Source of the DNA: Gammaproteobacteria bacterium
GTDB taxonomy: Bacteria > Pseudomonadota > Gammaproteobacteria > Eutrophobiales > Eutrophobiaceae
Length of the DNA: 64,000 nucleotides
Reading direction: 5' to 3'
NCBI GenBank assembly: GCA_038922795.1
Contig: JBCKWI010000001.1
Span: forward strand, 24,033-88,032
A program made the position numbers and the translations under genes. Below are positions 8,021 through 49,929 of this stretch, piece after piece. The first letter of the stretch is position 1; every line of letters begins with the position of its first letter. Below the pieces are notes generated by a model. That model was not told where the DNA came from and did not search any database. It worked only from the letters and a program-made list of their open reading frames with translations.

Positions 8021-8062
8021 CACAAATCGTTGATCCATATCTATTGGGGCAGGCCACAACCC

Positions 8063-9935: not shown

Positions 9936-9952
9936 ATAAGAGTTTGTATTTA

Positions 9953-22490: not shown

Positions 22491-22527
22491 ACCCCCATCC
22501 TACCTTCCCCCTGAAAGGGGGAAGGGG
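22491..22527. repeat. Hairpin repeat ACCCCCATCCTACCTTCCCCCTGAAAGGGGGAAGG (second copy at 34851..34888)
   Basis: The stem is CCTTCCCCC/GGGGGAAGG. A near-identical 38-nt sequence lies at 34851..34888. Confidence 0.8.
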
Positions 22528-34122: not shown

Positions 34123-34668
34123 ATGCCCCTGCAAATACAAAAAGCCCCGTTGCACCACATCCTGATCACCCTGTTATTGTGTGTTTCATTCCCGGTTCAT
34201 GCCAACGCACCTGTCACGGAACTGGTACGCATTGATGGCGTTACCCAACCGATGTCGGATTATATCGGCAAGGGCAAATGGGTTTTAATTAATGTATGGG
34301 GCCCGACCTGTTCGGCCTGCGTCAAGGAGCTGCCCAAGATCGAGGCCTTCCATAAAAAACATGCGGACGATGTGCAGTTGCTGGGACTGACCATCGACTT
34401 TCCGGGTTTCGGCTACGGCAAAATAGACATCATCAATGAGTTCTTGCAAAAGACGCCGATCCAATATCCCCTGTTTCTGGCTGACATCGAACTTGCCTCC
34501 GAGGTCATCGGTAACTGGCTGGTCGCCATCCCGCTCATGGCCATTTACCATCCGGACGGACGGGTGCTGGCTCGCTGGCCGGGTTATGTGGATATCGATG
34601 AGATCGAGGAGTTTATGCAGAACTATGAAGACTATGTACCGGATGATGAATTGACTAAAGGCTTTTAA
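34123..34668 (+). CDS. TlpA/ResA-like periplasmic thioredoxin-fold protein
   Basis: 181 aa with a signal peptide. The active site is WGPTCSAC (CxxC). Confidence 0.8.
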   Translation: MPLQIQKAPLHHILITLLLCVSFPVHANAPVTELVRIDGVTQPMSDYIGKGKWVLINVWGPTCSACVKELPKIEAFHKKHADDVQLLGLTIDFPGFGYGKIDIINEFLQKTPIQYPLFLADIELASEVIGNWLVAIPLMAIYHPDGRVLARWPGYVDIDEIEEFMQNYEDYVPDDELTKGF

Positions 34669-34896
34669 TAATACCTCCTCCCCCTGCCATGGGGGGGACT
34701 ACATGGAAACGTGCATGGAAGCACTAATACTGCGAGTGCAGGACGCACAGGAGCAGTGCGCAGGTGGTAGAGACAACGCCGGGAACGAGTTGTCGAGCAG
34801 TTGCCGAGGATTAAGGAGGGGGTTGAATTTCAATTCTTTCCAGACTTCATACCCCCATCCTTACCTTCCCCCTGAGAGGGGGAAGGTATGAATAAT

Positions 34897-34970
34897 TTAG
34901 ATTTCTCCAGTTCATACACATTAATAAAACCATCGTGGTTCGGCATCTGCACTTTCCGGTAGGGCCTCGT
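34897..34970 (-). pseudogene. Fragment A: about 70-nt copy of the 3-prime end of the cytochrome c gene at 46639
   Basis: ttagatttctccagttcatacacattaataaaaccatcgtggttcggcatctgcactttccggtagggcc aligns with 46639..46715 and with copies at 41657 and 43053. Confidence 0.7.
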
Positions 34971-35007
34971 ATAAATCTCGTGGTTGACGAATTTTCAAAA
35001 TGCACTC

Positions 35008-35048
35008 ATAGTTGCATCTAGTAATACTATATGCAACTATAGTTGCAT
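35008..35048 (+). promoter_or_regulatory. Palindromic leader of the AAA ATPase gene
   Basis: ATAGTTGCAT - 13 nt - ATGCAACTAT is an exact 10-bp inverted repeat. A third AGTTGCAT follows immediately and overlaps the ATG at 35047. Confidence 0.4.
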
Positions 35049-36243
35049 GAAGAATAGGCAATTCTGGCAGGAAAGAATTGAAACCGCCTGGAAACGGCGC
35101 TCCATTGTCTGGCTTTCAGGTGTACGCCGCGTGGGCAAGACCACACTCTGCCAATCCCTGCCCAACATTGAATACTTTGACTGCGAATTGCCGCGCACGC
35201 GCCGGTTAATGGATGACCCGGAGGGTTTCCTGGCTGGTTTGCGGCACAAGCGGGTGGTACTCGATGAGATCCACCGGCTGGGGCATCCTTCTGAACTGCT
35301 GAAGATCGCCGCCGATCATTTTCCCGATATAAATGTAATCGCTACCGGTTCTTCTACCTTGAGCGCATCAGCGAAATTCCGGGACACACTGGCTGGCCGT
35401 AAGCTGGATTTATGGCTGACACCCATGGCATCGCCTGACTTCAAAGCATTTGCCAGTACCAGTCTCGAACACCGGTTCCTGCATGGCGGTTTACCCCCAT
35501 TCTTCCTCGCAGACCCGCTGCCGGAACGCGAATTTCAGGAATGGATGGACGCCTACTGGGCCAAAGATATCCAGGAGATGTTCCGGCTGGAGCGCCGGCA
35601 TTCGTTTCAAAGGTTCACGGAATTGCTATTAAGCCACAGCAGTGGCATGTTCGAGGCGACACGCTACGCCCGCCCCTGCGAGGTAAGCCGTACTACCATC
35701 GCCAATTATCTGGCTGTGCTTGAAGCGACTTTTGTTGCGCATATCGTGCGGCCCTACAGCAACCGCCGGTCTTCGGAGATCGTTTCAGCACCGAAGATAT
35801 ACGGTTTTGATACCGGGTTTGTCTGCTATTACCGCGGTTGGCACAGTCTGCGTCGCGATGATATGGGACCGTTGTGGGAGCACTATGTCCTGAATGAACT
35901 GAATGCCCAACTGCAAACCCGGGATATCCGTTACTGGCGCGATAAACAAGGCCATGAAATCGATTTCATTCTGGCGCAGAGGGGCCATGCTCCGCTTGCC
36001 ATCGAATGCAAATGGTCAGCGGATGAATTTGACGCCTCCGAGCTCAAGATCTTCCGCAACCGTTACCCCAAGGGGGATAATTATGTCGTGGCGGAAGATG
36101 TGGCCCGTTCGTATGAGCGCGATTATCACGGCATCAAGGTGAAATTCGTCAATCTGAATAATCTGGTCAAGGCCCTGTCCGGGCAGGGCGATATGAAAGA
36201 TCGCCAGCCGGCGGCGAAGAAAAAAAAGCAAAGAAGAAAATAA
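35047..36243 (+). CDS. AAA+ ATPase with C-terminal DUF4143 / PD-(D/E)xK-like domain (COG1373-type)
   Basis: The start is placed at ATG 35047. Walker A is GVRRVGKTT and Walker B is VVLDEIH. The C-terminal GHEIDFILAQRGHAPLAIECKWS looks like a restriction-endonuclease-fold motif. Confidence 0.75.
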   Translation: MKNRQFWQERIETAWKRRSIVWLSGVRRVGKTTLCQSLPNIEYFDCELPRTRRLMDDPEGFLAGLRHKRVVLDEIHRLGHPSELLKIAADHFPDINVIATGSSTLSASAKFRDTLAGRKLDLWLTPMASPDFKAFASTSLEHRFLHGGLPPFFLADPLPEREFQEWMDAYWAKDIQEMFRLERRHSFQRFTELLLSHSSGMFEATRYARPCEVSRTTIANYLAVLEATFVAHIVRPYSNRRSSEIVSAPKIYGFDTGFVCYYRGWHSLRRDDMGPLWEHYVLNELNAQLQTRDIRYWRDKQGHEIDFILAQRGHAPLAIECKWSADEFDASELKIFRNRYPKGDNYVVAEDVARSYERDYHGIKVKFVNLNNLVKALSGQGDMKDRQPAAKKKKQRRK

Positions 36244-36413
36244 TGAAACTCACCGATAACGAAAAGCGGGACATTATCAAGTGTCTGGAAACGGACACTG
36301 ACCGGGCACAAATTTTTACAGAGATTGGGTCAGGCAGCAGGAAACCGGTATCGACTGGTTTTTTAGGCTATTCCAGAATCAGTTATTATTTCGACCGTGA
36401 GGGAGAAATCTGA
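36243..36413 (+). pseudogene. 56-codon ORF, possible displaced N-terminal remnant of the mod gene (tentative)
   Basis: It begins at a TAATG overlap with the ATPase stop. MKLTDNEKRDIIKCLE resembles the N-terminus of many Mod-type methyltransferases that precedes the ..L.W.GK motif with which the current mod ORF begins. Its 3-prime end is a half copy of the GTCATTTCGA REP family (36388..36411). Confidence 0.3.
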
Positions 36414-36456
36414 CATTTAATATGAAAACAGTATTAACGGATAAAGGAAAACATAA

Positions 36457-38064
36457 ATGCCAACGCTGAACTGGATCGGAAAAGAGGCGGTGGTGAATCA
36501 TCACCTGCAAGTCCCGTTTCATCTCCTTAAAGACGTTCTTGATCTTTCCTGTGGCGATCCGGGCAGCGGCAATCTCATCGTACAAGGTGATAATCTCGTC
36601 GCGCTCAAGGCACTGCTTCCGTATTACGCCGGACAGGTGAAGTGCATCTATATCGATCCACCCTACAATACCGGCAATGAAAACTGGGTCTATAACGATA
36701 ATGTGAACAGCCCCGTGATCCGTGAATGGCTGGGCAAAGTCGTGGGGAAAGAAGGAGAAACACTGGATCGGCACGACCGCTGGTTATGCATGATGTATCC
36801 ACGCCTTGCATTGCTGCGGCAGTTTCTGCGGGAAGACGGAGCGATTTTCATCAGTCTGGATGACAATGAAATTCAATCAATCAGAAATTTAATGGATGAG
36901 ATATTCGGTAGAGAGAATTTCCTGGCAACAATCATATGGCAAAAGAGGACTTCTCCAGATGCTCGGTTAAATTTAGGGCCTGCGCATGATTACATAGTTG
37001 TATATTCAAAAAATCTGAATCTGTTAAAACCTACTCTCAATAAAATCCCTCCAGGTGGAGAACGCGTAAAGGCATATAAAAACCCTGATAATGATCCTCG
37101 TGGAGTTTGGGCCTCTGTCGACATTACAGGACAAACTGGACACGCAACACCAGAACAATTTTACGAAATTGTTACCCCATCAGGATTGCGATTGAAACCA
37201 CCGAAGGGAAGATGTTGGGCAATGGCACAAAAAACAGTTATCGAACTTATCAAAGATAATCGCATTTGGTTTGGAAAGGATGGTAAATCACGTCCAAGAT
37301 TGAAAAAATTCCTCTCTGAAACTGAAGGTGTAACTGCTTGGACTTGGTGGCCAAACTCAGAAGTTGGTCACAATCAAGAAGCTACAAAAGAATTAAATGA
37401 AATAATGCAGAGTGCTGATGTTTTCGATAATCCTAAACCTAGTCGATTGATTCAGCGTATTTGTGGACTTGCCACAGATAAAGAATCAATAGTTCTGGAT
37501 TCATTTACTGGCTCTGGGACAACAGGCCATGCAGTTTTGAATTTAAACAAAGAGGATGGCGGCAACCGTAAATTTATTCTTGTGGAAATGGAGCCTTACA
37601 TTGCCCGTGAAGTGACTTCCGAACGCATACGCCGTGTAGCTGAAGGTTATATGAATACAAAAGGTGAGAAAGTGGAAGGACTCGGCGGTGGTTTCCGTTA
37701 TTGTGAACTCGGAGAACCTTTATTTGATGAAAACGGCAAGATCCGATCATCCGTAACCTTCGGTGAACTGGCCCGGCATGTGTATTTCACCGAGACCGGA
37801 GAACCCTTGCCGCGTGAGCGTGTACCGAATACGCCGTTTCTGGGTGAATGCCGGGGTGTAGGCATTTATCTTTTATATAACGGCATACTCAAGGATAAAA
37901 GCGCGAATGGCGGCAATATGTTGACACGCAATATGCTCGCGCAACTTCCACCCTTTGACGGGCAGAAGGTAATTTACTGTGCCGGTTGTCTGCTGGGCCG
38001 GGATCGTTTGCAGGCAGAACGCATCATCGTGCGACAGACACCATATGAGATTAAGGTGAGTTGA
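36457..38064 (+). CDS. mod: Type III restriction-modification system methyltransferase (Mod), beta-class N6A/N4C MTase
   Basis: 535 aa. Motif IV DPPYNTG precedes motif I DSFTGSGTTGHA. It is followed, after two small genes, by a Res-type helicase-nuclease. Confidence 0.85.
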   Translation: MPTLNWIGKEAVVNHHLQVPFHLLKDVLDLSCGDPGSGNLIVQGDNLVALKALLPYYAGQVKCIYIDPPYNTGNENWVYNDNVNSPVIREWLGKVVGKEGETLDRHDRWLCMMYPRLALLRQFLREDGAIFISLDDNEIQSIRNLMDEIFGRENFLATIIWQKRTSPDARLNLGPAHDYIVVYSKNLNLLKPTLNKIPPGGERVKAYKNPDNDPRGVWASVDITGQTGHATPEQFYEIVTPSGLRLKPPKGRCWAMAQKTVIELIKDNRIWFGKDGKSRPRLKKFLSETEGVTAWTWWPNSEVGHNQEATKELNEIMQSADVFDNPKPSRLIQRICGLATDKESIVLDSFTGSGTTGHAVLNLNKEDGGNRKFILVEMEPYIAREVTSERIRRVAEGYMNTKGEKVEGLGGGFRYCELGEPLFDENGKIRSSVTFGELARHVYFTETGEPLPRERVPNTPFLGECRGVGIYLLYNGILKDKSANGGNMLTRNMLAQLPPFDGQKVIYCAGCLLGRDRLQAERIIVRQTPYEIKVS

Positions 38065-38082
38065 GAAGTGACTAACTTAACT

Positions 38083-38156
38083 GTCATTTCGAGCGTAGCG
38101 AGAAATCTGTATTTCAAATTTATAACCACAAGATTTCTCCCTTCGGTCGAAATGAC
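38083..38156. repeat. REP-type hairpin, family GTCATTTCGA...TCGAAATGAC, copy 2
   Basis: gtcatttcgagcgtagcgagaaatct...agatttctcccttcggtcgaaatgac. Confidence 0.8.
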
Positions 38157-38188
38157 ACGAACTAATTTCCAGAGATTACTTTAATACC

Positions 38189-38386
38189 ATGGTAAATATC
38201 AGAGAAATAGTAGAGCAGTTCAACGAGGATGAAGCGGTGTGGCGTTGTTATGAAGCCATACGCAAACTACGCCGGAAACCGGGCACGACTTTATCGTTGC
38301 CGGAAGAGGTGCTTGATCATCTCGATTGGCTGGAAGCGGAGCGGGAATGCCGCGAACAACATTACAACAACAGGAGGGACCCATGA
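38189..38386 (+). CDS. Small hypothetical protein, translationally coupled to the ORF6N gene
   Basis: 65 aa. Its stop overlaps the next start (ATGA at 38383..38386). I recognised no motif. Confidence 0.45.
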   Translation: MVNIREIVEQFNEDEAVWRCYEAIRKLRRKPGTTLSLPEEVLDHLDWLEAERECREQHYNNRRDP

Positions 38387-38964
38387 AGCAATCGCAATTG
38401 ATTGAATTTCTAATCTTCACCATACACGGCCATAAGGTTTTGCTGGATGCTGATCTGGCACGGTTATATGGCGTAGCAACTAAACGGTTTAACGAGGCAT
38501 TCAAACGTAACCGGCAACGATTTCCAGATGATTTCGCCTTTCAACTTACTGCTGCAGATCTCGCAAACTTGAGGTCACAATTTGCGGCCTCAAGATTGCA
38601 AGCCGCTGAAAATCCTGAAGATATGGCGAACTGGTCGCAATTTGCGACCAGTTCGAGCCGTCATCGAGGTGCAACATATCGCCCATGGGCCTTTACCGAG
38701 CATGGAGCACTGATGGCCGCCAATATCCTGCGCAGCAAGCAGGCCGTTCATATGAGCATTTACGTGGTTCGCGCATTTGTGAAACAGCGTGAGCAAATTA
38801 CAGCGAATGCCGCCATATTCAAACGCCTCGCTGAAATTGACAAAACCTTGTTGCAACATGATTCCACCCTGCGCGATATTTACCGTAAACTCATGCCGCT
38901 GCTGCAACCGCCACCTGAACCTCCTAAACGGCGCATCGGATTCATTACGGATGACGATAAATGA
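38383..38964 (+). CDS. ORF6N domain-containing protein (KilA-N-related DNA-binding)
   Basis: The start is placed at ATG 38383 after AGGAGGG. HGHKVLLDADLARLYGVATKRFNEAFKRNRQRFPDDFAFQLT and YRPWAFTEHGALMAANILRSKQAV are classic ORF6N. Its stop overlaps the res start (ATGA). Confidence 0.8.
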   Translation: MKQSQLIEFLIFTIHGHKVLLDADLARLYGVATKRFNEAFKRNRQRFPDDFAFQLTAADLANLRSQFAASRLQAAENPEDMANWSQFATSSSRHRGATYRPWAFTEHGALMAANILRSKQAVHMSIYVVRAFVKQREQITANAAIFKRLAEIDKTLLQHDSTLRDIYRKLMPLLQPPPEPPKRRIGFITDDDK

Positions 38965-41633
38965 TTACGCTTAAGGATTATCAGATACGTGTGCTGGAAT
39001 CGCTAGGCGAGTTCTTCCGGCTGACGGTTAAAAAGCGTGATCCGCATATTGCCTTTGAGGACGTGACCCGGCGCACTTTTCAGGAACCTGCCCCCTATCT
39101 TCCAAATCCTGCTGGCCTGAATTCAGAAATGCCCTATGTCTGTCTTAGGGTTCCCACGGGTGGAGGCAAGACACTGTTGGCGTGTTATGCAGCGGGATTG
39201 GCGAAGAATGAATTGTTGCATGGAGAACATGCGGTGGTGTTGTGGTTGGTGCCGAGCAATACGATTCTGGATCAGACCGCGGATGCCTTGCGTGATCCCC
39301 GGCATCCATACCGGCGGGCGCTGGCACTGGCCTGTGGCGCCGTTGAAGTCATGACGATAGAAGAAGCATTGCGGGTGTCGCGTGCCACAGTGGATGGACA
39401 GACCGTCGTTATCGTCTTGACCATACAATCATTTCGTGTTGAGGATACTACTGGCCGCAGGGTATATGGACAGAACGGCGCTTTTGCCGAACACTTGCTG
39501 AATGTGCCTGCTGATCGTATTGCTGATCTGTTACCGGGTGCAGATGGCAAACCCTTACCCTCATTAGTCAATATGCTGCGGCTGCGCCGTCCGATTGTCA
39601 TTGTGGATGAGGCACATAATGCACGCACTGATCTCTCATTCAACACACTGAGCGGTGTATTGCCCTCCTGCATCATAGAATTCACTGCAACTCCAGCCCG
39701 TGAAGGTAATCCTTCGAATGTTTTGCATCATGTGTCAGCAGCAGAATTGAAAGCCGCAGATATGATCAAACTTCCCTTGCGTGTTGTGACCCGGCATCCG
39801 AGCCAGCGCGATCAATTGCTTGCTGAAGCCATTACGCTGCGCAGCGACCTTGAAAAACTGGCTATATCCGAAGCACAACAGACCGGTGAATACCTGCGGC
39901 CAATCATGTTGATTCAGGCGGAGCGGGTGGATGGATGCGAACCCTTGCGTGAACGTATGGTAAACGAATTTGGCCAAGTGAAGGATGAAATAAAGATATC
40001 GGTGGGTTCTCTGGATGAACTGAAGGATTTAAAAGATATCGATTCTCCAAAATGCCCGGTGCGATTCATTATCACGGTGCAGAAACTACGAGAGGGTTGG
40101 GATTGTCCGTTTGCGTATGTCTTGTGCAGCCTCAAAGAATCGCGTTCTGCTACTGCGATTGAACAGATTGTCGGGCGTATTCTGCGATTGCCCTCTGCGC
40201 GTTTGAAACGACATCCCGATCTTAACTGTGCATATGCACTTTCAGTTTCTGATTCGCTGCCTGAGGTTTTAAATGAACTGAAAGAAGCGCTGGAAAGCAA
40301 TGGATTTACACCGGCAGAGGCTGATCGAATCATCATTCCTGTCCCACAGGGTGTTTTACCGCTTGGGTTGCAACCACAGACACTAAAAGTGGGGCTGGAA
40401 GAAATTGATACTGTAGTAGCTCAGTCACAAGAGACAGCATTCGCGGGAAAGGTGCGAATAGATACTGCTAAAGGTGAGATCACAGTGATTGTCCCGCTGG
40501 ATGATAGCGAGACAGAAAAGCTTACGAATTGTGTCAAGACACCTGAGGCAAAGGCAAAAGTGCGTGAAATAGCTGAGCTTGTACGGGAAGCGGAAAAGGC
40601 CTTTGGTGGTAGCGGCAAAACACGCATGCCTACACCTTATGAGAGGCGTTTGGATTTTGCCGTGCCGTTGTTATGTGTATATGAAAACGGAAAATTATTC
40701 GATTTTGAAAGTACTTTTCTGATGGAACACGCATGGAAACTCAGTGAAAAAGACGCTTCACTTTCTCAAGGATATAACCCAATGAAACGACCTGTGGGAG
40801 AAGCTGGGTATCTGGATGTGGGTGCAAAAGGCGAAGTGCAGAGTAATGTGATTCAGGCACCTGAAGGTGATTTTGTGACTACACTGCATCAACATGTGCT
40901 GGCCTTTGGAGAGTCCAATGATTGGACACTGGAAATGCTGGTTGCATGGCTGGATAGTCATATTGATCACACAGATATTCCGGCAGGTGAATCGGCGGAA
41001 TTCATGCGTAAAGCGATCCGCGGGTTAATGGCGAAATATGGCATCACGGATATGGGTATACTGGCACTGGATCGCTTTCGTCTGCGCGATAAGATAACGG
41101 CACGCATTCAGGAACATAGAGACAGTGAACGCAAGGCGGCGTTCCGGCAATTCCTGTTACCTGGCTCGTCGCTGACCGTCAGTGATGAGCGAGTCCTTAG
41201 TTTCAAGTCCATGACTTATGAACCAAGCCGGCTCTATGAGGGCGGTTTCCAGTTCAAGAAACATTACTTCGGTCCGAAACCCGGTGAATTGCAGGAAAAA
41301 ACCCGAGGCGGAGAACTGACTGAAGAATTTAAATGTGCACAATTTATTGATGGAAAGGCAGAAGTAGAATTCTGGGTACGCAACCTTGCACGAAAAAATA
41401 CTTCTTTCCGCCTGCAAACATCAACCGACTGGTTTTATCCGGATTTTGTCTGCCAGCTCACGGACGGTCGCGTTCTCGTGGTGGAATATAAAGGCAAGGA
41501 CCGTTATACGGGGGAAGATGCGGAAGAAAAACGTGCGGTTGGTGCTGTGTGGGCAGCACGCAGTAAAGGACGCTGTTTGTACGTCATGCCGACTGAAGGT
41601 AACTATTCAACAATCACTACAGCAATTAAGTAA
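38961..41633 (+). CDS. res: Type III restriction enzyme Res subunit (SF2 helicase + C-terminal PD-(D/E)xK nuclease)
   Basis: 890 aa. Motif I is VPTGGGKT and motif II is VDEAHN. The C-terminal nuclease-like segment is YPDFVCQLTDGRVLVVEYKG. Confidence 0.85.
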   Translation: MITLKDYQIRVLESLGEFFRLTVKKRDPHIAFEDVTRRTFQEPAPYLPNPAGLNSEMPYVCLRVPTGGGKTLLACYAAGLAKNELLHGEHAVVLWLVPSNTILDQTADALRDPRHPYRRALALACGAVEVMTIEEALRVSRATVDGQTVVIVLTIQSFRVEDTTGRRVYGQNGAFAEHLLNVPADRIADLLPGADGKPLPSLVNMLRLRRPIVIVDEAHNARTDLSFNTLSGVLPSCIIEFTATPAREGNPSNVLHHVSAAELKAADMIKLPLRVVTRHPSQRDQLLAEAITLRSDLEKLAISEAQQTGEYLRPIMLIQAERVDGCEPLRERMVNEFGQVKDEIKISVGSLDELKDLKDIDSPKCPVRFIITVQKLREGWDCPFAYVLCSLKESRSATAIEQIVGRILRLPSARLKRHPDLNCAYALSVSDSLPEVLNELKEALESNGFTPAEADRIIIPVPQGVLPLGLQPQTLKVGLEEIDTVVAQSQETAFAGKVRIDTAKGEITVIVPLDDSETEKLTNCVKTPEAKAKVREIAELVREAEKAFGGSGKTRMPTPYERRLDFAVPLLCVYENGKLFDFESTFLMEHAWKLSEKDASLSQGYNPMKRPVGEAGYLDVGAKGEVQSNVIQAPEGDFVTTLHQHVLAFGESNDWTLEMLVAWLDSHIDHTDIPAGESAEFMRKAIRGLMAKYGITDMGILALDRFRLRDKITARIQEHRDSERKAAFRQFLLPGSSLTVSDERVLSFKSMTYEPSRLYEGGFQFKKHYFGPKPGELQEKTRGGELTEEFKCAQFIDGKAEVEFWVRNLARKNTSFRLQTSTDWFYPDFVCQLTDGRVLVVEYKGKDRYTGEDAEEKRAVGAVWAARSKGRCLYVMPTEGNYSTITTAIK

Positions 41634-41656
41634 AACCTCCCGATTCAGGCCGCGGA

Positions 41657-41788
41657 TTATTTTTTCTTTTCTTCCAGTTCATACACATTAATAAAACCAT
41701 CGCGGTTTGGCATCTACACTTTCGGCAGGGCCCCGACATTCATCTCGTCATTCTCTCCGATGTTATTGTCCAGATATACCCTAATCAG
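41657..41788 (-). pseudogene. Fragment B: about 130-nt copy of the 3-prime end of the cytochrome c gene
   Basis: ttattttttcttttcttccagttcatacacattaataaaaccatcgcggtttggcatctacactttcggcagggccccgacattcatctcgtc... aligns with 46639..46770. Confidence 0.75.
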
Positions 41789-41992
41789 GGCATGTTCAGA
41801 AATCTTAAAAGCGTGTAGGCTGTATTCCTATCTACCTGAACCGTAAGCGGAAATCAGGTTCTTCGGTGCCAAACTTGAATCAAAAGAACCAGTTACAATT
41901 CTGCCAGTCTATTAATTCTATGAATGCAATTTGGGTTGAATTTCATTTAACCTACTACTATTTATTAATCTGTAAATGAATTTGTATTATCT

Positions 41993-42646
41993 ATGTTAAT
42001 CACTCACGAACGAGAGAAACTTATTAATGCCATCAAGTATTTCGTAAAAAATACGAAATATTGTGGTCTTACAAAGCTGTTTAAACTTCTTTATTTTCTT
42101 GATTTTATCCACTTCCGGGAGACCGGAAAACCTGTAACGGGTCTTACTTATTACACATGGAAAATGGGCCCGGTTCCACGTGATCTATACAATGAGATTA
42201 AAGATCAAAAAGGTAATATTCATACCTTTTTCTTGATCCAGAACCCGGAAGATCTGGAGGCTGAAGAACATGAATCATTGGATTACAAAATACCTAATGA
42301 CCTGAGGGAAGCAGGATATTCATCTGATCCTCGTTGGGGTAAAAACAAGAAAAAAACAACTGTTTTTAAAGCCTATAACAAATATCACGATAAATATTTT
42401 AGTAAAAGAGAGAAAAGAATCCTTGAAGAAGTAGCTTTCATGTTCAAAGAATTATGGGCAGATCAAATTGTTGAGGTTACTCATCTTAAAGGGGCCCCAT
42501 GGGATAAAACGAAAAAACAAAATGGTATGGACCAGCCCATTGATTACATGTTGGCTTTGGATGGTTCCAGTGATAAAGAACTCAATATTGAAGAATTAAA
42601 AACAAGAATTGTTGAAATGGAAATAGCACGGACTGCTCTTGAATGA
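41993..42646 (+). CDS. Panacea (DUF4065, SocA-like) domain antitoxin
   Basis: 217 aa. LTKLFKLLYFLDFIHFRETGKPVTGLTYYTWKMGPVP is the hallmark N-terminal Panacea motif. Confidence 0.75.
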   Translation: MLITHEREKLINAIKYFVKNTKYCGLTKLFKLLYFLDFIHFRETGKPVTGLTYYTWKMGPVPRDLYNEIKDQKGNIHTFFLIQNPEDLEAEEHESLDYKIPNDLREAGYSSDPRWGKNKKKTTVFKAYNKYHDKYFSKREKRILEEVAFMFKELWADQIVEVTHLKGAPWDKTKKQNGMDQPIDYMLALDGSSDKELNIEELKTRIVEMEIARTALE

Positions 42647-42984
42647 AACCTGGCACAGTAATCCATCATAAATAATTTCAAATCTCCGACGGCAATATAG
42701 ATGATAAGTTGCTGGTAATGCTTAATTATCAACGGGGCGGTGAATTTCTAGCTTTACTAACCACATCACAACAATGTAATAGAAAAAAACTTGAAGGTTG
42801 TCAAAGTGAGTTGGGGTATTATTTTTGCCCTGCAAATAAAAACTGGTTTGAAAAAGATACATGGATTCTTCTGTATGAACCCTATTCTTTGAGTAGAACT
42901 GAACTGGAAAATGCCGAGCAAGCGGGAATTGTGAAAATTATGCAGGATTTAGACGATCAATTAACCCGGGCAATCATAAATTGA
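42643..42984 (+). pseudogene. Putative cognate toxin gene interrupted by an in-frame TAA at codon 11
   Basis: ATG at 42643 overlaps the antitoxin stop (ATGA). The reading is MKPGTVIHHK-TAA-FQISDGNIDDKLLVMLNYQRGGEF..., in the same frame as track ORF 42709..42984. Confidence 0.5.
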
Positions 42985-43055
42985 TTCAAGAAATCTGATG
43001 ATTGTTCTGATCATCACTTATGGTTACTTGCTTAGTATCACAAAACGAAATAGAT

Positions 43056-43530
43056 TTATTTTTTCTTTTCTTCCAGTTTATACACATTTATAAACCCGGC
43101 CCGGTTCGGCATCTGCACCTTGGGCAGGGCGTCGGCATTCATCTCGTCTTTCTCGCTGATAATATTATTCAGATATAAAAGATAGGCCGTGACCGCATAC
43201 ACCTCATCGTTGGTCAATGTCCCCGGTGCGTTCATGGGCATGGAGCGGCGGGTCATATCAAAGATCGTCGTTGCATACGGCCAGTAACTGCCAATGGTCT
43301 GTTCCGGATATTCACTGGTGAGAGACATTTTTGCACCGGCAAGTTGATCTGCCGTACCACCCACGCCTTCCAGACCATGACACGCCACACAATGTTTTTC
43401 ATAAATGGGCTTGCCTGCCTGGGCCGTGCCTTTTCCTTCCGGTAGACCTTCACCATCGGGCATGATGCCGATGTTCCCAGTGGGCGATTTCTTCCGGAGT
43501 TGCAGGTTGCCCGAGTCCTGGGCCTTCTAA
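43056..43530 (-). pseudogene. Fragment C: about 470-nt copy of the 3-prime two-thirds of the cytochrome c gene (heme site retained, N-terminus and signal lost)
   Basis: The 135-aa ORF aligns along its whole length with the C-terminus of ORF 46639..47469 (CVACHG, YWPYATTIFDMTRRSMPM). Homology continues to about 43530 but with a 1-nt indel (gttccc versus gtccc). Confidence 0.85.
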
Positions 43531-43540
43531 AAGATGTGTT

Positions 43541-43732
43541 TATAATTACAAATTATCAGGAAGAGTTGAATATGATGAATTTTACTCTGATAAATCCAAA
43601 CTCATTATTGACCAGATTGACGAAGTTTTAGCACAACACTATGGCTTCTCCGAGGAAGAACTGGATTTCATTATTAATTATGACATCAAGTACCACATGG
43701 GACTCAGCGGGGATGAAAGCGAAAACGAATGA
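43541..43732 (+). pseudogene. 3-prime remnant of a restriction/modification-type gene (tentative)
   Basis: It encodes ...KSKLIIDQIDEVLAQHYGFSEEELDFIINYDIKYHMG...*, which I recognise as a C-terminal tail seen in DNA methyltransferase / type IIG enzymes. There is no start or upstream body. Confidence 0.35.
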
Positions 43733-43771
43733 ACCGCACGGATGTTATGTAACTACATTAGCTTGTTAAAT

Positions 43772-44815
43772 TTACTCTTTGTCAGTTTTGCCTGCTTTAG
43801 CCCTCTCGATCATCCTTTTTACCGCGGAATTTGCTTTATAGGGATATAATTCTATTTCCGGATGCCTTTGGGCAAACACCCTGAAAATTTCGTCTGCAAA
43901 GGCTTGTCCAATCGACTCAACACCATTGAAGTCAAATATGACAACCTTAAACAATTCAACTCTTGCGAGAAGCCTTTTCGCCTGGGAGCGGGATATTAAT
44001 TTGTCATTTCCATATTGGGCCAATTTCACAGGTACGACCGTTTTGTTGAAGCCGTAGTCATCACCGGAAGAATGTTGATCGAATATCTTTTTGGTTGCTC
44101 GCGCAGTATGGTTGTTTAGTTTCATCCATACTGCTGTGCCCGTTTCAAACCGTTCTCTTTCAATAATCCAGTCTTCAGCATCTCCAAATTTATGAGAAAA
44201 ATACACACCGCCAGATACAATATCGAAAGCATCAAACATTCTTGAGGAGAAAAAGATGCCTTCACCGGTATGATTCCTGGGATCTGTAGTTAACTTTCCC
44301 TTGGAGAGCTCAAGGATGGCATGGCGCTCATCCAGCAGGCCCAATTCCGCCTGGATTTTCTTGAAAATACCCACGCCATTGTCGAGCAGCGCCATCTCAG
44401 TATTTGCAGCGGTTTTTCTTATTCGAACGTATATTTCAGAGCCGCCTGAATGATCAATTGCATTATTAAACATTTCAGTGAAACCGTAATGCCATATATC
44501 CATGACATTGTCAGGCATTTGTCCGATCACTGGTGTTATTTCATTTCTCCATACCAGATCTTCGGCCAGTTTTGTGGTGATCTCAAACTGCTGATCCCAT
44601 TCCAATAAAGGACATAGCTTATATGACCGGTTTCTCGTTTTCCCGGTCTCTGAGAGCGCGTGTTCTGAAGCTAGTCTTAGCAGATGTTTATTGACCGCTT
44701 GCCGGGTGATGCCAAAATGTCCGGAGGTCAGCTTGCTTATGTTAGCTGGATGTTTTTCGACGTTTTCCAGTATAAAACGCCGGATGTCTTCACCCCTTGT
44801 TCGCGCCCTGGTCAT
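43772..44815 (-). CDS. wHTH + GHKL (HATPase_c) ATPase + STAS-like DUF4325 protein
   Basis: 347 aa. The N-terminal wHTH is ISKLTSGHFGITRQAVNKHLLRL. GHKL N-box is NNAIDHSGG and G1 is LLDNGVGIF. The C-terminal DUF4325-like segment is LISRSQAKRLLARVELFKVVIFDFNGVESIGQAFADEIFRVF. Confidence 0.7.
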   Translation of the reverse strand: MTRARTRGEDIRRFILENVEKHPANISKLTSGHFGITRQAVNKHLLRLASEHALSETGKTRNRSYKLCPLLEWDQQFEITTKLAEDLVWRNEITPVIGQMPDNVMDIWHYGFTEMFNNAIDHSGGSEIYVRIRKTAANTEMALLDNGVGIFKKIQAELGLLDERHAILELSKGKLTTDPRNHTGEGIFFSSRMFDAFDIVSGGVYFSHKFGDAEDWIIERERFETGTAVWMKLNNHTARATKKIFDQHSSGDDYGFNKTVVPVKLAQYGNDKLISRSQAKRLLARVELFKVVIFDFNGVESIGQAFADEIFRVFAQRHPEIELYPYKANSAVKRMIERAKAGKTDKE

Positions 44816-44835
44816 TTGAAACCTTGCCCCTTATA

Positions 44836-44887
44836 TTGTCAACCTTAATCGCAATTATTGTCAACCATAATGAATAATTTGTCAACC
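44836..44887. promoter_or_regulatory. Three direct TTGTCAACC repeats (iteron-like) upstream of the wHTH-GHKL-STAS gene
   Basis: TTGTCAACC occurs at 44836, 44858 and 44879 (spacing 22 and 21 nt). On the gene strand each reads GGTTGACAA and contains a TTGACA hexamer. The last copy lies 21 nt from the ATG. Confidence 0.55.
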
Positions 44888-44916
44888 ATATAGACGACCG
44901 CCCGGAACCCCGTCAG

Positions 44917-45126
44917 TTATTTTATTCGTGGCTCGAATTGTATGCCATTATCGCCTGGGTGAGAGGTGGTGTGATTGTTGCGCCCATCCCATATTGGATC
45001 TGGGATGCGGTCTGGGAAGGCCGCACACCGGTGTAGCATCAGCGATCTTATATGGCGGCAGTTGTTACAGACCGGACTCCATGCCGAGTCCGGCCTTGTG
45101 TCAAATCGTAGATTTTTATCAGACAT
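44917..45126 (-). CDS. Small Cys-containing hypothetical protein
   Basis: 69 aa. It has CNNC...C and AFPDRIPDPIWDGRNNHTTSHPGDNGIQFEP. It starts 2 nt after the upstream ORF ends. Confidence 0.45.
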   Translation of the reverse strand: MSDKNLRFDTRPDSAWSPVCNNCRHIRSLMLHRCAAFPDRIPDPIWDGRNNHTTSHPGDNGIQFEPRIK

Positions 45127-45128
45127 TG

Positions 45129-45557
45129 TTACTTTCTCCGTCTTCGAGAATATTTAAGTCCGGTCCGGCGCGCAACTCGCATCCATAATAAATGCTGATA
45201 GTGTATATCGAACTGATCTTCCGTGATTTTCTCTGACTGTAGGGCATCATACATTTGCCCGATCAGTTTAGCCTCCACATCTTCTACCGCAGGCATAATA
45301 ACCTCGTCAAACAAGCGCTTGTCCCAGCCGCCTTCAGGCGGTTTCATGATGTACACAAAAGCTGGGTCAATAACGCGCATCTCTGCAACCCCGAGCTCGG
45401 ACGAAGTTTTCACATCCTTGACTGAAAACGAGGTAATTACAGGGTGATTATGCAGCGTGATCGCCCCCTTCATTAACCGCTGCTCTTCTTCTGTAAAAGG
45501 CACGTTGTGTTCGGTGCCAGTTTTTGTGAATAGCAACTCTCCATTTTTAGACAACAC
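45129..45557 (-). CDS. Hypothetical protein, possibly 5-prime truncated (contains an LHNHP...S..D segment)
   Basis: 142 aa from GTG 45557. The reading frame stays open a further 46 codons upstream without any ATG/GTG/TTG, which suggests loss of the original N-terminus. Confidence 0.4.
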   Translation of the reverse strand: MLSKNGELLFTKTGTEHNVPFTEEEQRLMKGAITLHNHPVITSFSVKDVKTSSELGVAEMRVIDPAFVYIMKPPEGGWDKRLFDEVIMPAVEDVEAKLIGQMYDALQSEKITEDQFDIHYQHLLWMRVARRTGLKYSRRRRK

Positions 45558-45890
45558 AACCGCTTCTTCTAATTTACTGCCGGCAATTGACTGCTGATAA
45601 TCTGAAATGACTTTCCCGATTTTCGGCGCTGCATAAGCAACCTGTTTTCGAGGTTGCCCAAGTAGTGGGGGTGTTATGTTCTTCCTTTAAGGCGTAAATA
45701 TGAAGATTGAGGAATATCATTTCCGGAATAAACCTGCATAGCTAAAGGACTAATCCATCAATTATGATTACAAGGACGAATATTGGCCCTGTTATCCTCA
45801 ACCGGATGAAATCTCATTACCCGGCGGTACTGGAACGGCGCCTTGGGAGAGCTGCAGCGGACAGAATCAGCACACTTGGCAGTCTTCGGA

Positions 45891-45919
45891 TTGCAGAAAT
45901 TCTGCTTTTCTGCCATACT
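45891..45919 (+). promoter_or_regulatory. Putative vapBC promoter with palindromic operator
   Basis: TTGCAG - 17 nt - CATACT. The palindrome GCAGAAATTCTGC (45893..45905) overlaps the -35. The ATG lies 8 nt after the -10. Confidence 0.4.
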
Positions 45920-45926
45920 GTCATGC

Positions 45927-46169
45927 ATGAAAACCACTCTCACGGTCACGAGCCGGGGCGTTGTGACCTTGCCCGCCAAGCTCCGTCAGGAACTCGGTAT
46001 TAAAGCTGATGATCAGTTGATCGCCGAGACCACCCCGGAAGGATTACTGCTGCGCCCTGCCGTTACTCTCCCGGTAGAGCTGTACAGCGAGAAACGGATC
46101 CGGGAGTTCGACAAAGCTGAATCCGATTTGAACAAAGTCCTGCGCCGTAGCAAGAAATCCACCCGCTGA
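45927..46169 (+). CDS. vapB: AbrB/MazE/SpoVT-type antitoxin (VapB-like)
   Basis: The start is placed at ATG 45927. MKTTLTVTSRGVVTLPAKLRQELGIKADDQLIAETTPEGLLLRP is a SpoVT/AbrB swapped-hairpin motif. Confidence 0.8.
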   Translation: MKTTLTVTSRGVVTLPAKLRQELGIKADDQLIAETTPEGLLLRPAVTLPVELYSEKRIREFDKAESDLNKVLRRSKKSTR

Positions 46170-46178
46170 TCGCAGTGG

Positions 46179-46592
46179 ATGCGGATCTTCCTTGACGCCA
46201 ACATTCTTTTTTCCGCCGCCAAGTCAGATGGCGCCGTAAGGCGATTGCTGACATTACTCATCGACGCCGGTCATGAGTGCTGGGTGAATAGTTATGTGCT
46301 GGAAGAAGCGCGGCGAAACCTGGTTATCAAAATACCTGAAAATCTTTCTGCTCTGGATGCCCTGCTGTCACAACTGCATCTGGCTGATATTTACTCACCC
46401 CTCACAGTCCCCAAAGCAGCGCTCAAACTGCCGGAAAAGGATCGGCCGGTACTCGCGGCGGCTATTCACCTCTACTGTGATGTATTGGTTACCGGGGACC
46501 GGACTCATTTCGGTTATTTGTATGGCAAGACAATTGATGGTGTAAAGATTTGCTCGCCACGATTACTTGCAGAGACACTGTTCCCTGTCTGA
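46179..46592 (+). CDS. vapC: PIN domain toxin (VapC-like)
   Basis: 137 aa. It has MRIFLDANILF, EEARRNL and VLVTGDRTHF, which give the acidic PIN residues. Confidence 0.8.
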   Translation: MRIFLDANILFSAAKSDGAVRRLLTLLIDAGHECWVNSYVLEEARRNLVIKIPENLSALDALLSQLHLADIYSPLTVPKAALKLPEKDRPVLAAAIHLYCDVLVTGDRTHFGYLYGKTIDGVKICSPRLLAETLFPV

Positions 46593-46638
46593 GTACTAAA
46601 TCACTTAATAAACACGTTTCATTCTGACTTAATAGATT

Positions 46639-47307
46639 TTATTTTTTCTTCTCTTCCAATTCGTACACATTAATAAAACCATCACGGTTCGGCATCTGCA
46701 CTTGGGGCAGGGTCCCGGCATTCATCTCGTCTTTCTCGCCGATGATATTGTTCAGGTATAAGAGATAGGCCGTGACGGCATAGACTTCATTATTGCTCAG
46801 TGCGCCCGGTGCGGTCATGGGCATGGAGCGGCGGGTCATATCAAAGATGGTCGTGGCATAGGGCCAGTAACTGCCGATGGTTTGTTCCGGATAGTCACTG
46901 GTCAATGCCATCTTTGCACCGGCGAGTGGGTCGGCCGTACCGCCCGCACCCTCAGGCCCATGACAGGCGACACAATGTTTTTCATATATCGCCTTGCCTG
47001 CCTGTGCCGTGCCTTTTCCTTCCGGTAGACCTTCACCATCCGGCATGATGCCGATGTCCCAGTGGGCGATTTCTTCAGGTGATGCGGGTTGGCCGAGGTT
47101 GGGGCTTTGGGGCGGGTTGGCATGGACGGGATTGAGGAAACTGAAAATTAATAGAACCGCCAACAGATTTTTTCCCTCACCCCTACCCTCTCCCGGAGGG
47201 AGAGGGAGACTGAAAGCTGAAAAATTATTTTGCTTAACCCCGCCCCGCCCCTCTTCCGGAGGGAGAGGGAGAATACTTGAATGACGAATTGAAGAAAGTG
47301 AGGACAT
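46639..47307 (-). CDS. Monoheme c-type cytochrome, partner subunit of the upstream molybdoenzyme (SorB/SoxD-like); start uncertain
   Basis: CVACHG heme site. Track ORF 46639..47469 overlaps the upstream gene. ATG 47307 follows the sorA-like stop (47321). The N-terminal 45 codons are encoded by two REP hairpins, then comes a signal-like LLAVLLIFSFLNPVHA. Confidence 0.7.
   Translation of the reverse strand: MSSLSSIRHSSILPLPPEEGRGGVKQNNFSAFSLPLPPGEGRGEGKNLLAVLLIFSFLNPVHANPPQSPNLGQPASPEEIAHWDIGIMPDGEGLPEGKGTAQAGKAIYEKHCVACHGPEGAGGTADPLAGAKMALTSDYPEQTIGSYWPYATTIFDMTRRSMPMTAPGALSNNEVYAVTAYLLYLNNIIGEKDEMNAGTLPQVQMPNRDGFINVYELEEKKK
47174..47271. repeat. Two REP-type hairpins, family CTCCCGGAGGGAGAGGG, inside the 5-prime part of the cytochrome ORF
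   Basis: ccctcacccctaccctctcccggagggagagggag and aaccccgccccgcccctcttccggagggagagggag. They translate as PLPPGEGRGEG / LPLPPEEGRGG. Confidence 0.8.
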
Positions 47308-47320
47308 GCTCAAAGCTTTC

Positions 47321-48685
47321 TTAATCCCAGCCGCTATCAATACTGATATCGTCAGTAGTCTTTGTAATGTCTTTTTCATCATAGATATGATTGACCACAC
47401 CCTCTTCATCGATTTTCCAGGTGACAATGGCGTTGTAATGGAAGAACCCGTGCCGGCCGCGCTCCGCAATCAATTTATCGCGTTCCGGTTGCACATAGCC
47501 GGTCTCATCCGTGGCACGGCTTTTCAGAATGGCCGGTTTGCCATTCCATTGCCAGGGAACACGGAAGCGGGTAAGTGACTGTGATAATACTGGTTCCTGC
47601 AATTCCGCCTCGGCCCAGCTCTTGCCGCCGTCAGCCGAGACCTCGACCTCTTTGATCTTGCCACGGCCGGACCAGGCCAACCCGGTGATCTGATACAGGC
47701 CGGGTTGTTTCAGGATCATATTCGCTGAAGGTGAAGTAATGAGCGACTTGGCTTCCATGACAAAAGTAAACATCCGTGCCTTGCCGTCCGGTTGCAATTC
47801 CGTATAGCGTGAGGTCTCATTGCGCGCCATGATCGGTTTGTCCGTGGCCTTCAACCTTCGCAACCATTTTACATTCAGTACCCCTTCCCAGCCGGGCAAG
47901 ATTAACCGTAAGGGATAACCATTTTCCGGGCGTATGCGCTCGCCATTCTGGTACAAGGCAAGCATGCCGTCCTGCATCGCCTTTTCGATCGGGATGCTGA
48001 TGTTCATGGCAAAGGCATCCGCGCCTTCCGTGATCAACCATTTAGCTTTTTCGGTGACACCCACTTCATTCAATATTGTTGCGAGCGGCACGCCAGTCCA
48101 TTCACTGCAGGAGACCAGCCCGTGAAAATAACCGGCCTCCGCTTTTGCTGGTGATTTATTCCAGCCCGCGTTACTGTTGCCGCCGCATTCCACAAAACAG
48201 ATGCGTGACTGCATCGGATAACGCAACAGATCTTCGATGTTGAAAAATGAAGGGTTCCTGACCAGACCATGGATCAGCAATTTGTGTTGTGCCGGATCGA
48301 CCTGCGGTACACCGTTATGATGGCGCTCAAAATGCAAACCGCTCGGGGTAATAGTCCCCTCCAGTTTATGCAGTGGTGTCCATGACACACCGTTGCCACT
48401 GACGTCGCGGTTGGCCGTCGGGAATCTCACCACCTCATCTTCATATTTCGACGGTGTGCCATAAATCGAAAACGGCGCGCCGGGTTCATGCAGCCACGGT
48501 GGATTGGCAGGATCAATTGGTGAATCAATATCTTTGGCGGAAATTACTTTGGGAACTGCTGATGCGGCAAGAGTCGCAACACTGAAGGTCAGGCCGGTTT
48601 TCAGAAACAGGCGCCGGTCCAAAAGACCGTTGCCGGCGATTGATTGTAAATCATCAACATCAGGCATATGTGGATTTTTTTTCAT
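47321..48685 (-). CDS. Molybdopterin-dependent sulfite dehydrogenase/oxidase family catalytic subunit (SorA/SoxC-like), Tat-exported
   Basis: 454 aa with a twin-arginine leader (LLDRRLFLKTGLTFSVATLAA). Sulfite-oxidase-family segments are present (ECGGNS, YPLRLILPGWEGVLNVKWLRRL). Confidence 0.75.
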   Translation of the reverse strand: MKKNPHMPDVDDLQSIAGNGLLDRRLFLKTGLTFSVATLAASAVPKVISAKDIDSPIDPANPPWLHEPGAPFSIYGTPSKYEDEVVRFPTANRDVSGNGVSWTPLHKLEGTITPSGLHFERHHNGVPQVDPAQHKLLIHGLVRNPSFFNIEDLLRYPMQSRICFVECGGNSNAGWNKSPAKAEAGYFHGLVSCSEWTGVPLATILNEVGVTEKAKWLITEGADAFAMNISIPIEKAMQDGMLALYQNGERIRPENGYPLRLILPGWEGVLNVKWLRRLKATDKPIMARNETSRYTELQPDGKARMFTFVMEAKSLITSPSANMILKQPGLYQITGLAWSGRGKIKEVEVSADGGKSWAEAELQEPVLSQSLTRFRVPWQWNGKPAILKSRATDETGYVQPERDKLIAERGRHGFFHYNAIVTWKIDEEGVVNHIYDEKDITKTTDDISIDSGWD

Positions 48686-48773
48686 TTAATGACAAAGTGC
48701 ACGACTATTTATAAATACCTTTGATTAATCCTGTCCCATAATTATTTATGTCAGGCCACCATGATAATAAACC

Positions 48774-48805
48774 GTCATACCGGCCATGGACTGGCCGGTA
48801 TCCAG
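48774..48805. repeat. REP-type hairpin, family GTCATWCYGG...ATCCAG
   Basis: gtcataccggccatggactggccggtatccag. Confidence 0.75.
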
Positions 48806-48912
48806 AAGCTGGAGCCTGTACCATACTTGATTACAGGAGATACCTTCCCTGGTGGCTGGATTGCGTACATTCCTGTACGCAACGACGATGATGGTATTTT
48901 GAGACAGGTTGC

Positions 48913-49838: not shown

Positions 49839-49929
49839 CTCCCTCGCCCCAACCCCTCTCCCGGAGGGAGAGGGATATTATATGGGCCCTCGCCCACTGG
49901 GAGAGGGCGGCGTAAGCGGGTGAGGGAGG
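49839..49929. repeat. Two REP-type hairpins, family CTCCCGGAGGGAGAGGG / related
   Basis: ctccctcgccccaacccctctcccggagggagaggga and gggccctcgcccactgggagagggcggcgtaagcgggtgagggagg. Confidence 0.75.

Follow-up and report, generated by a model that had tools for sequence, protein, structure and literature searches.

How defence islands build up at hotspots that are flanked by core genes and lack mobility genes is an open question. It is raised here by an 11.7-kb interval within 64,000 nt of a Gammaproteobacteria bacterium of the Eutrophobiaceae (assembly GCA_038922795.1, contig JBCKWI010000001.1, positions 24,033 to 88,032; this whole stretch is called the window, and coordinates refer to it unless a relative is named). 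In this interval, the gene for a SorB-like cytochrome c (sorB) and a convergent tlpA-like gene are held apart by three small islets of defence and addiction genes, which are delimited by partial copies of the sorB 3' end. The sorB-tlpA interval is an integrase-free hotspot for such genes, and it keeps scars from which the number, order, and relative age of the gains as well as the type of junction can be read. The scars are consistent with serial import of related chromosomal DNA that displaced the sorB 3' end each time.

The proximal flank of the interval is formed by sorA, encoding a molybdopterin sulfite dehydrogenase (47321..48685, minus strand; Pfam Oxidored_molyb + Mo-co_dimer), and the intact sorB (46639..47382, minus strand; stop codon at 46639-46641; Pfam Cytochrom_C; C-terminal tail EEKKK followed by the stop). 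The distal flank starts with the gene for the TlpA-like thiol-disulfide oxidoreductase (34123..34668, plus strand; Pfam AhpC-TSA/Redoxin), which shares 78% nucleotide identity with the gene abutting sorB in a relative without any islet (L011), and the gene order beyond it, i.e., tlpA-like redoxin, chorismate synthase (aroC), major facilitator superfamily transporter, and CBS protein, is conserved. Besides the intact gene, three copies of the sorB 3' end in the same orientation were recovered by repeat search and alignment, confirming the four copies that had been reported in the initial annotation, and all of them are in register at the stop-codon side. They divide the 11.7 kb into three islets, and the cargo assigned to each islet was upheld by Pfam, PADLOC, and NCBIfam searches.

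Fragment C (43055..43527, minus strand) comprises the last 473 nt of a sorB allele. Over the final 414 nt, its identity to the intact gene amounts to 86.0%; it carries a 1-nt indel close to the 5' end, retains the CxxCH heme motif as well as the EEKKK tail, and lacks a signal peptide. Fragment B (41657..41782, minus strand) comprises the last 126 nt of sorB at 84.9% identity over 126 nt, and is decayed, with an in-frame stop and an EEKKK tail. Fragment A (34897..34978, minus strand), a displaced native sorB 3' end with the tail ..YELEKS.. and no EEKKK, is solid from 34897 to ~34952 (85-88% identity over 52-56 nt to sorB of relatives, E 1e-10 to 3e-11), and weaker collinear similarity to sorB extends as far as ~34978. 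Since no residual sorB similarity was found in the sequence 5' of each fragment, the fragment boundaries are real. Between tlpA and fragment A lies a spacer of 228 nt (34669..34896), which is absent from empty sites, has no match in relatives, and contains a host-type hairpin resembling repetitive extragenic palindromic (REP) elements at 34851-34886. The GC content falls to 36% in islet 2, compared to ~50% in the flanks.

The same site was inspected in contigs of related uncultured organisms (L numbers), which were reached via SorB and TlpA protein homologues. In at least six lineages (L011, L013, L014, L015, L095, L096-99) the site is empty, i.e., sorB is followed directly by the convergent tlpA with the two stop codons -4 to +141 nt apart, and in at least 5 to 6 lineages it is occupied by differing defence cargo. 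In L094, intact sorB is directly followed by a distantly related toxin/Panacea pair, whose Panacea homologue is 45-50% identical to the antitoxin of islet 2, and then by HsdS. L010 carries the 6A-MBL anti-phage protein (NCBIfam E 3e-83). L104 carries DUF3800, a UvrD-like helicase, a 1173-aa Eco57I-type methylase, an SNF2/PLD helicase, and Fic; the set downstream of its sorB (L104 6276-16027) resembles DISARM, and the contig view stops short of the far side of this island.

A complete island of 12.3 kb occupies the sorB-tlpA site of L012/L102, which are views of one Joint Genome Institute (JGI) contig. Here, intact sorB is followed by HEPN-MNT and Phd-ParE, a sorB 3' fragment of ~195 nt, a type I restriction-modification (R-M) system with ThsB_TIR and DUF3800, AbiEi, a native sorB remnant of 33 nt, and tlpA. 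Because this independent contig has the same layout as the window, the stacked-fragment architecture is recurrent and the site is a genuine hotspot. In the type I system, a ThsB-like TIR gene, a 149-aa open reading frame (ORF), and the DUF3800 gene are embedded between hsdM, hsdS, and hsdR (L012 12672-20534 / L102 12063-20546); the HsdM carries an N-terminal HTH_3 domain, and the gene adjoining tlpA is of the AbiEi_2 type.

Fixed flanks with variable defence content among relatives are the hallmark of a core-gene-flanked defence hotspot, and both are found here; the reused insertion hotspot that had been proposed from the window is thus borne out by the empty sites and the alternative cargo. 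No stacked sorB fragments were found among the relatives from the metagenome scan, which were mostly at or below 68% identity and without the sorB-tlpA neighbourhood, and a scan of genome contigs with SorB returned distant relatives only. A 135-aa protein that looked fragment-like (P0062) was rejected as a sorB fragment, as it is cut by the contig edge.

The relationship between the copies is informative about their origin. Between intact sorB and fragment C, 58 of 414 nt are different, distributed over codon positions 1, 2, and 3 as 11/7/40 (69% at the third), and the codon changes comprise 35 synonymous and 16 non-synonymous ones. Because the divergence lies mainly at third codon positions, the two are alleles from different lineages and not local duplicates; they diverged as working genes in separate lineages before being joined by transfer. 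None of the sampled relatives is closer to fragment C than the resident sorB is. The differences between fragment B and intact sorB (7/3/9 by codon position) are less biased than those of fragment C. Decay rises towards tlpA, with fragment C forming an open 135-codon ORF, fragment B interrupted by its in-frame stop, and fragment A partly unrecognisable, and this gradient fits a newest insertion adjoining intact sorB. The order of events rests on position and decay, not on a phylogeny of the four copies. Variants that had been reported as shared by fragments A to C turned out to be synonymous Tyr and Leu codon polymorphisms, which also occur in intact genes of relatives, and fragment C has T at a position with C in A and B; they are thus no mark of a common origin of the three fragments.

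The C-terminal tail is a further distinguishing character. The intact gene and fragments B and C end in ..EEKKK-stop, whereas fragment A has a different, native-type tail. The copies adjoining tlpA (..LEKS.. in fragment A, LEKSAE-stop in the 33-nt remnant of L102) resemble the end QGKSGE-stop of the empty site in L096. This agrees with the earlier proposal that the target gene had been regenerated and its native 3' end displaced. The 19-nt end GGAAGARAAGAAAAAATAA, encoding ..EEKKK-stop, terminates the sorB copies that precede cargo, namely the window intact gene (46639-46657) and fragments C (43056-43074) and B (41657-41675) as well as the copies of L012 (10516-10534), L094 (1421-1439), L101 (403-421), and L104 (6009-6027). 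It is identical or differs by 1 nt in these seven copies, and the ~100 nt upstream are 75-85% identical. Among the relatives listed, no empty-site sorB ends in GGAAGARAAGAAAAAATAA. One EEKKK-tailed homologue (P0022, L104) had been predicted beforehand to lie at an occupied site, and the prediction held; the contig of P0062 supplies one more EEKKK-tailed sorB, without tlpA after it. Two exceptions were noted: L010 is occupied and ends in LEKTR-stop, and the L012 fragment lacks EEKKK and has a gap at the tail in the alignment with L104.

In the SorA tree, EEKKK-tailed, occupied lineages are interleaved with empty ones, and because of this scatter the EEKKK tail is considered to travel with islands and not with lineages. 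Further correspondences between units were found across genomes: the Panacea toxin-antitoxin (TA) module lies after fragment C in the window and after intact sorB in L094, and ~90 nt of non-coding sequence after the L012 fragment are ~80% identical to the stretch after intact sorB in L104. In this way, a fragment and the cargo behind it in one genome correspond to an intact sorB and its cargo in another. The conservation of the GGAAGARAAGAAAAAATAA end may reflect hitch-hiking, selection, or a recognition site.

The islet boundaries and the gene content bear on the claim of the initial annotation that the sorB 3' end is an attB used by integrases that have since been lost. No integrase or transposase was detected in the window island, either among ORFs (Pfam, PADLOC, PHROGs, and NCBIfam; Pfam was run on all ORFs of at least 60 aa) or in the gaps (six-frame Pfam), and none was found in precomputed Pfam annotations of the complete L012/L102 island and 10 kb of L104. 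Within the window, tRNA and Rfam families gave no match. The 5' limits of the fragments all differ, lying 33, ~55-85, 125, ~195, and 473 nt from the stop; the 3' limit at the stop codon is common to all, so the constant repeat extent expected of integrase islands is not seen. No terminal inverted or direct repeats and no shared end motifs beyond chance were found in the islets, and nothing corresponds to a transposon or insertion sequence with terminal inverted repeats, target-site duplication, and transposase.

At the youngest junction (43527/43528), truncated sorB abuts the last ~57 codons of a DNA methyltransferase gene of roughly 1000 codons. A methyltransferase remnant had already been recognised at this place, and is here narrowed down to these codons (43559-43732, plus strand, at the distal end of islet 3), which align with the very C-terminal end of a 1088-aa enzyme encoded by plasmid pPRO1, the best plasmid match (tblastn against plasmids, E 5e-14). 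The missing 5' part of the gene would fall where fragment C now is. As two truncated genes abut at this point, the junction is better described as an illegitimate joint than as an att site. The absence of recombinases, the variable 5' limits, this junction, and the lack of a shared end motif thus do not bear out the attB claim. Some features of integrase islands are present, in that the target gene was regenerated with its native end displaced and the site is empty in relatives. In addition, for seven different cargos the similarity between units extends no further than ~8 nt from the stop codon, which favours a site-specific process; the spacer from this stop to the first cargo gene ranges from 5 to ~250 nt. 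An integrase-mediated origin of the oldest, shortest remnants may apply.

The copies with their boundaries, the empty as well as the alternative sites, the allelic divergence, the lack of recombinase genes, and the truncated gene seen at the youngest joint are observed; from them, we infer a recombination pathway in which imported related chromosomal DNA has its anchor in homologous sorAB sequence and is joined illegitimately at its other end, within the redundant tail of the resident sorB. We regard the chances of this mechanism being right or wrong as evenly balanced. In brief, DNA of a related strain carrying sorA-sorB and then that strain's own island would enter the cell, where the host recombination system would pair it with the resident sorAB; sorA, which is conserved in all relatives compared, is the likely homology anchor. 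The non-homologous far end would then be closed by an illegitimate joint within the 3' portion of the resident sorB, which would have become redundant as a complete sorB end was supplied by the incoming DNA. The product would start with an intact sorB of partly imported sequence, continue with the part of the donor island nearest to sorB and then with the 5'-truncated tail of the resident sorB, and end with the earlier content. Upon repetition, the newest islet would come to lie next to intact sorB, and older islets, each behind its own sorB tail, would be pushed towards tlpA. Joints that survive would be those inside the redundant sorB, which spare tlpA as well as the resident R-M and TA modules, whose loss would be penalised; where sorB and tlpA abut, there is almost no other harmless insertion point. 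The variability of the fragment limits, the truncation of cargo ends, the absence of recombinases, and the order of decay would follow from such a process, as would the small size of the islets (as sorB-proximal pieces of larger donor islands) and the hitch-hiking tail allele. Host-type REP elements inside islet 1, described below, suggest relatives as donors.

Several points weigh against this mechanism. Sliding-window identity along sorA-sorB revealed neither a mosaic breakpoint nor a recent import tract. A donor or pre-insertion parental sequence, from which microhomology at the joints and the anchoring crossover could have been read, was not found. Homology-facilitated illegitimate recombination is rare experimentally (PMC5361080), and the mechanism presumes uptake of DNA by the host. 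Moreover, the initial placement of each different cargo 5-250 nt from an EEKKK-type stop is not accounted for by this mechanism; a site-specific process would be expected to yield just such a sharp, shared boundary.

An alternative, that of the initial annotation, is site-specific integration of elements into sorB. Each would have brought its own tyrosine or serine integrase and an attP with a replacement sorB 3' end, and three integrations would have been followed by deletion of the integrases. The regenerated sorB with its native 3' end displaced next to tlpA, the empty sites, the att-end-like combination of a shared ..EEKKK-stop on cargo-linked copies with similarity that stops within ~8 nt of the stop codon, and a highly conserved 33-nt block by the tail, which would make a good target, are all in line with such elements; different integrase families reportedly use different sublocations of one target gene (Williams 2002). 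Even so, five different 5' limits with up to 473 nt of genuine coding sequence would require five cores, and fragments B and C, which share a tail and would hence belong to the same element family, have limits of 125 and 473 nt. Neither an integrase nor a remnant of one occurs in ~34 kb of island sequence; this comprises three lineages and also covers the very young islet 3, the displaced fragment of which still forms an open 135-codon ORF. No arm motif is common to the islet ends, and junction C joins two truncated genes. An attP candidate with a sorB-like end was not found in IMG/VR using a protein pattern and a degenerate 33-mer, a search that did not extend to plasmids and non-viral elements. 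Taken together, we consider self-encoded integrases unlikely at this locus. A recombinase encoded elsewhere, or another site-specific activity, could instead recognise ..TTTATTAATGTGTA..GGAAGARAAGAAAAAATAA and insert cassettes right after the stop, modelled on Xer as used by IMEX elements (integrative mobile elements exploiting Xer) and pdif modules. This would suit the absence of a recombinase in cis, the sharp boundary common to seven cargos, and a tail that is nearly invariant next to the more divergent 100 nt upstream. It would leave the duplicated upstream sorB of variable length unexplained, L010 is occupied behind a different tail, and nucleotide conservation of the tail, given its amino acids, is not statistically compelling (our estimate, p ~0.2). 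No dif-like or palindromic core and no motif common to the other islet ends were seen, and a dif/Xer-like site in the conserved block was rejected on inspection by eye. This reading is therefore rated as very improbable.

A footprint equal to that of homology-anchored import, with variable repeat length, allelic divergence, and no integrase, would be left by RecA-dependent insertion of the Campbell type. In this case, a non-replicating circle with a 3' piece of sorB and cargo, released in the donor by recombination between sorB repeats or by illegitimate excision, would enter by a single crossover in the recipient sorB and thereby duplicate the shared piece. The direct sorB repeats flanking the islets are suitable excision substrates. 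Repeats of 55-125 nt are short for an efficient RecA crossover, circle formation would still require an illegitimate joint (e.g., of the methyltransferase remnant to sorB), and there is no evidence of circular forms; we hold this route to be improbable, and note that it is not separable from the favoured import mechanism by sequence alone. Finally, the copies might stem from local tandem duplication of the sorB 3' region, followed by decay and replacement of the DNA in between. Repeats in the same orientation and in register are indeed what unequal crossing-over produces. Divergence with 69% of the changes at third positions, however, accumulates under purifying selection and not in a pseudogene, the cargo differs between every pair of repeats, islet GC content drops to 36% against ~50% in the flanks, the distal copy has a different, native tail, and relatives have different cargo. 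Local duplication seems largely refuted by the codon-position data and is hardly credible.

By analogy, the closest known process to the proposed import is the 3'-end (C-terminal) displacement in rhs genes, orphan cdiA-CT/cdiI modules of CDI (contact-dependent growth inhibition), and effector-immunity arrays of the Vibrio cholerae type VI secretion system (T6SS). For the T6SS arrays as well as the rhs and CDI orphan modules, the process put forward is homology-facilitated illegitimate recombination, with the displaced downstream gene being kept by selection (PMC5361080). As in these arrays, a new 3' end and downstream genes would arrive via conserved upstream homology (proposed here), and the old 3' end with its downstream gene would be pushed back and retained without an integrase. 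As in these arrays, too, one intact gene is followed by 5'-truncated 3' fragments with their own cargo, the newest being nearest (also in L012/L102), and the displaced copies are alleles from other lineages, as indicated by the 11/7/40 bias and by tails at odds with the SorA tree. In contrast to the toxin genes, sorB encodes a housekeeping periplasmic cytochrome c with a conserved 3' end, and its displaced pieces are redundant and do not represent alternative toxins. No polymorphic toxin with cognate immunity is involved, the R-M, TA, and defence cargo has no functional tie to sorB, and on the far side the array is bordered by a fixed, convergent core gene.

Tandem integrase islands at tRNA, tmRNA, and protein-gene 3' ends likewise have a regenerated gene with a displaced native end, partial copies between islands, and empty sites. 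They differ in that none of the islets here has an integrase, repeats range from 33 to 473 nt instead of spanning a fixed core-to-end distance, the youngest junction joins two truncated genes, and arm sequences are not shared. Core-gene-flanked defence hotspots without mobility genes have been described in P. aeruginosa as core defence hotspots (cDHS) and termed enigmatic (PMC10250203), and for integrase-free hotspots of horizontal gene transfer, recombination at the core genes on either flank, without scars, was inferred (PMC5635113). The sorB-tlpA site shares with these the fixed core flanks, the highly variable defence content, and the lack of a recognisable mobile element. Whereas double crossover is scarless at those sites, each gain here left a partial copy of one flank, which points to one-sided anchoring and allows the events to be counted and put in order. 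Homology-facilitated illegitimate recombination in transformable bacteria, as cited in PMC5361080 (de Vries & Wackernagel 2002; Prudhomme et al. 2002; Meier & Wackernagel 2003), likewise combines one homologous anchor with a nearby illegitimate joint and adds foreign DNA; it was seen in laboratory selections, whereas here it would be read from natural footprints alone.

The locus itself is one more defence hotspot in an uncultured lineage, with a mechanism that is inferred. Serial 3'-end displacement, known for polymorphic toxin genes, could also act at housekeeping genes and provide a general, integrase-free way of building defence islands; this extension is offered tentatively, and we lean somewhat against it. 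If it is true, the newly redundant tail of the upstream gene would be the only harmless place for an illegitimate end where convergent core genes abut, and every gain would leave a dated tail copy comparable to a tree ring. Direct repeats would turn each islet into a cassette that RecA can excise and insert, and the ..EEKKK-stop end of sorB would be a hitch-hiking, even selected, handle that spreads with islets across species. If general, partial copies of flanking genes could reveal and date integrase-free acquisitions in other genomes and could predict islets lost or moved by recombination between repeats.

The cargo of the islets consists of defence and addiction genes, as had been stated initially, including a Type III R-M system, candidate defence genes, the Panacea TA module, and VapBC. 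In islet 1, all genes are on the plus strand and encode an AAA_14 + DUF4143 ATPase (34984..36243; PADLOC candidate PDC-S01), the Type III R-M methyltransferase Mod (36457..38064; Pfam N6_N4_Mtase; PADLOC MTase_III, E 7e-208), an anti-repressor-like ORF6N-domain protein (38326..38964; PADLOC candidate PDC-S05), and the Type III restriction enzyme Res (38961..41633; Pfam ResIII; PADLOC REase_III, E 2e-128), whose stop lies 23 nt from that of fragment B. Islet 2 carries, also on the plus strand, a SocA/Panacea-domain antitoxin (41993..42646; Pfam SocA_Panacea, E 5e-24; the match to NCBIfam SocA_antitoxin is under the cut-off of that family) and a 91-aa ORF without family match (42709..42984), which is presumed from its position to be the toxin partner.

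Apart from the methyltransferase remnant, islet 3 encodes on the minus strand a protein with GHKL ATPase and STAS-like DUF4325 domains (43772..44815; Pfam DUF4325 and HATPase_c_2, the HATPase matches being under Pfam gathering scores) and a 142-aa ORF to which no function was assigned (45129..45557; no match in Pfam, PHROGs, NCBIfam, and PADLOC). On the plus strand, these are followed by a MazE/AbrB-type antitoxin, VapB (45843..46169; Pfam MazE_antitoxin, E 3e-10), with a true start that is probably internal to the called ORF, and a PIN-domain toxin, VapC (46179..46592; Pfam PIN_3), whose stop lies 46 nt from that of sorB. The idea that the islets are part of a known plasmid was discarded, as plasmid matches were limited to cytochrome c, the Mod-type methyltransferase, and 3' ends of large DNA methyltransferase genes.

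Short repeats were also noted within islet 1. Immediately upstream of the probable AAA_14-DUF4143 start codon (ATG), at 35008-35048, there is an inverted and direct repeat of ATAGTTGCAT (33 nt, 91% self-complementary), which resembles an operator. The palindrome GGTCGCAAATTGCGACC occurs twice inside the ORF6N gene (38573-38589 and 38633-38649), and as many matches were obtained in 0 of 100 shuffles. It is also present in homologous non-coding stretches of L104 (6060-6160, after sorB) and L012 (12500-12580, after the sorB fragment); these stretches could be what is left of an ORF6N-type gene, or else a regulatory element in common.

The public gene call places the start of sorB at ATG 47307, the start also used in the initial annotation (46639..47307). 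The same frame runs upstream to ATG 47382. It begins with MMKKTLQRLLTISVLIAAG, in agreement with the N-termini of SorB in L011 and L013, and has 62 nt in common with the sorA end, an overlap also present in these two relatives. Based on this comparison, intact sorB probably starts at 47382. In this N-terminal region (47109-47382, minus strand), between the MMKKTLQRLLTISVLIAAG N-terminus and a second signal-peptide-like segment KNLLAVLLIFSFLNPVHA, there is an in-frame insertion of ~60 codons with two REP-like hairpins inside, and similar REP-derived extensions are found in L010 and other close SorB homologues.

Several families of short, GC-rich REP-like hairpins are scattered in the intergenic regions of the window, forming the groups 34851-34886 / 22491-22525, 47186-47209 / 47249-47272 / 49854-49875, and 38082-38107 / 9911-9936. 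The hairpin in the spacer between tlpA and fragment A (34851-34886) is 94% identical to 22491-22525. Intergenic sites of L010 and L011 also match a REP-like element that islet 1 carries between its mod and ORF6N genes; this suggests that islet 1 has long been resident in the lineage or came from a relative.

Variation was also seen at neighbouring junctions. The junction between the PrmA-like methyltransferase gene and sorA (48686-48912) is without extra genes in the window; L011 has four there (6235-8670; Lactamase_B, TauE, Sulf_transp, and DUF6691), L095 has a 260-aa gene (7793-8575), and in L104 a 245-aa gene lies there on the opposite strand (3039-3776). On the distal side, a pirin gene lies between tlpA and aroC in L011, and the window is without it.

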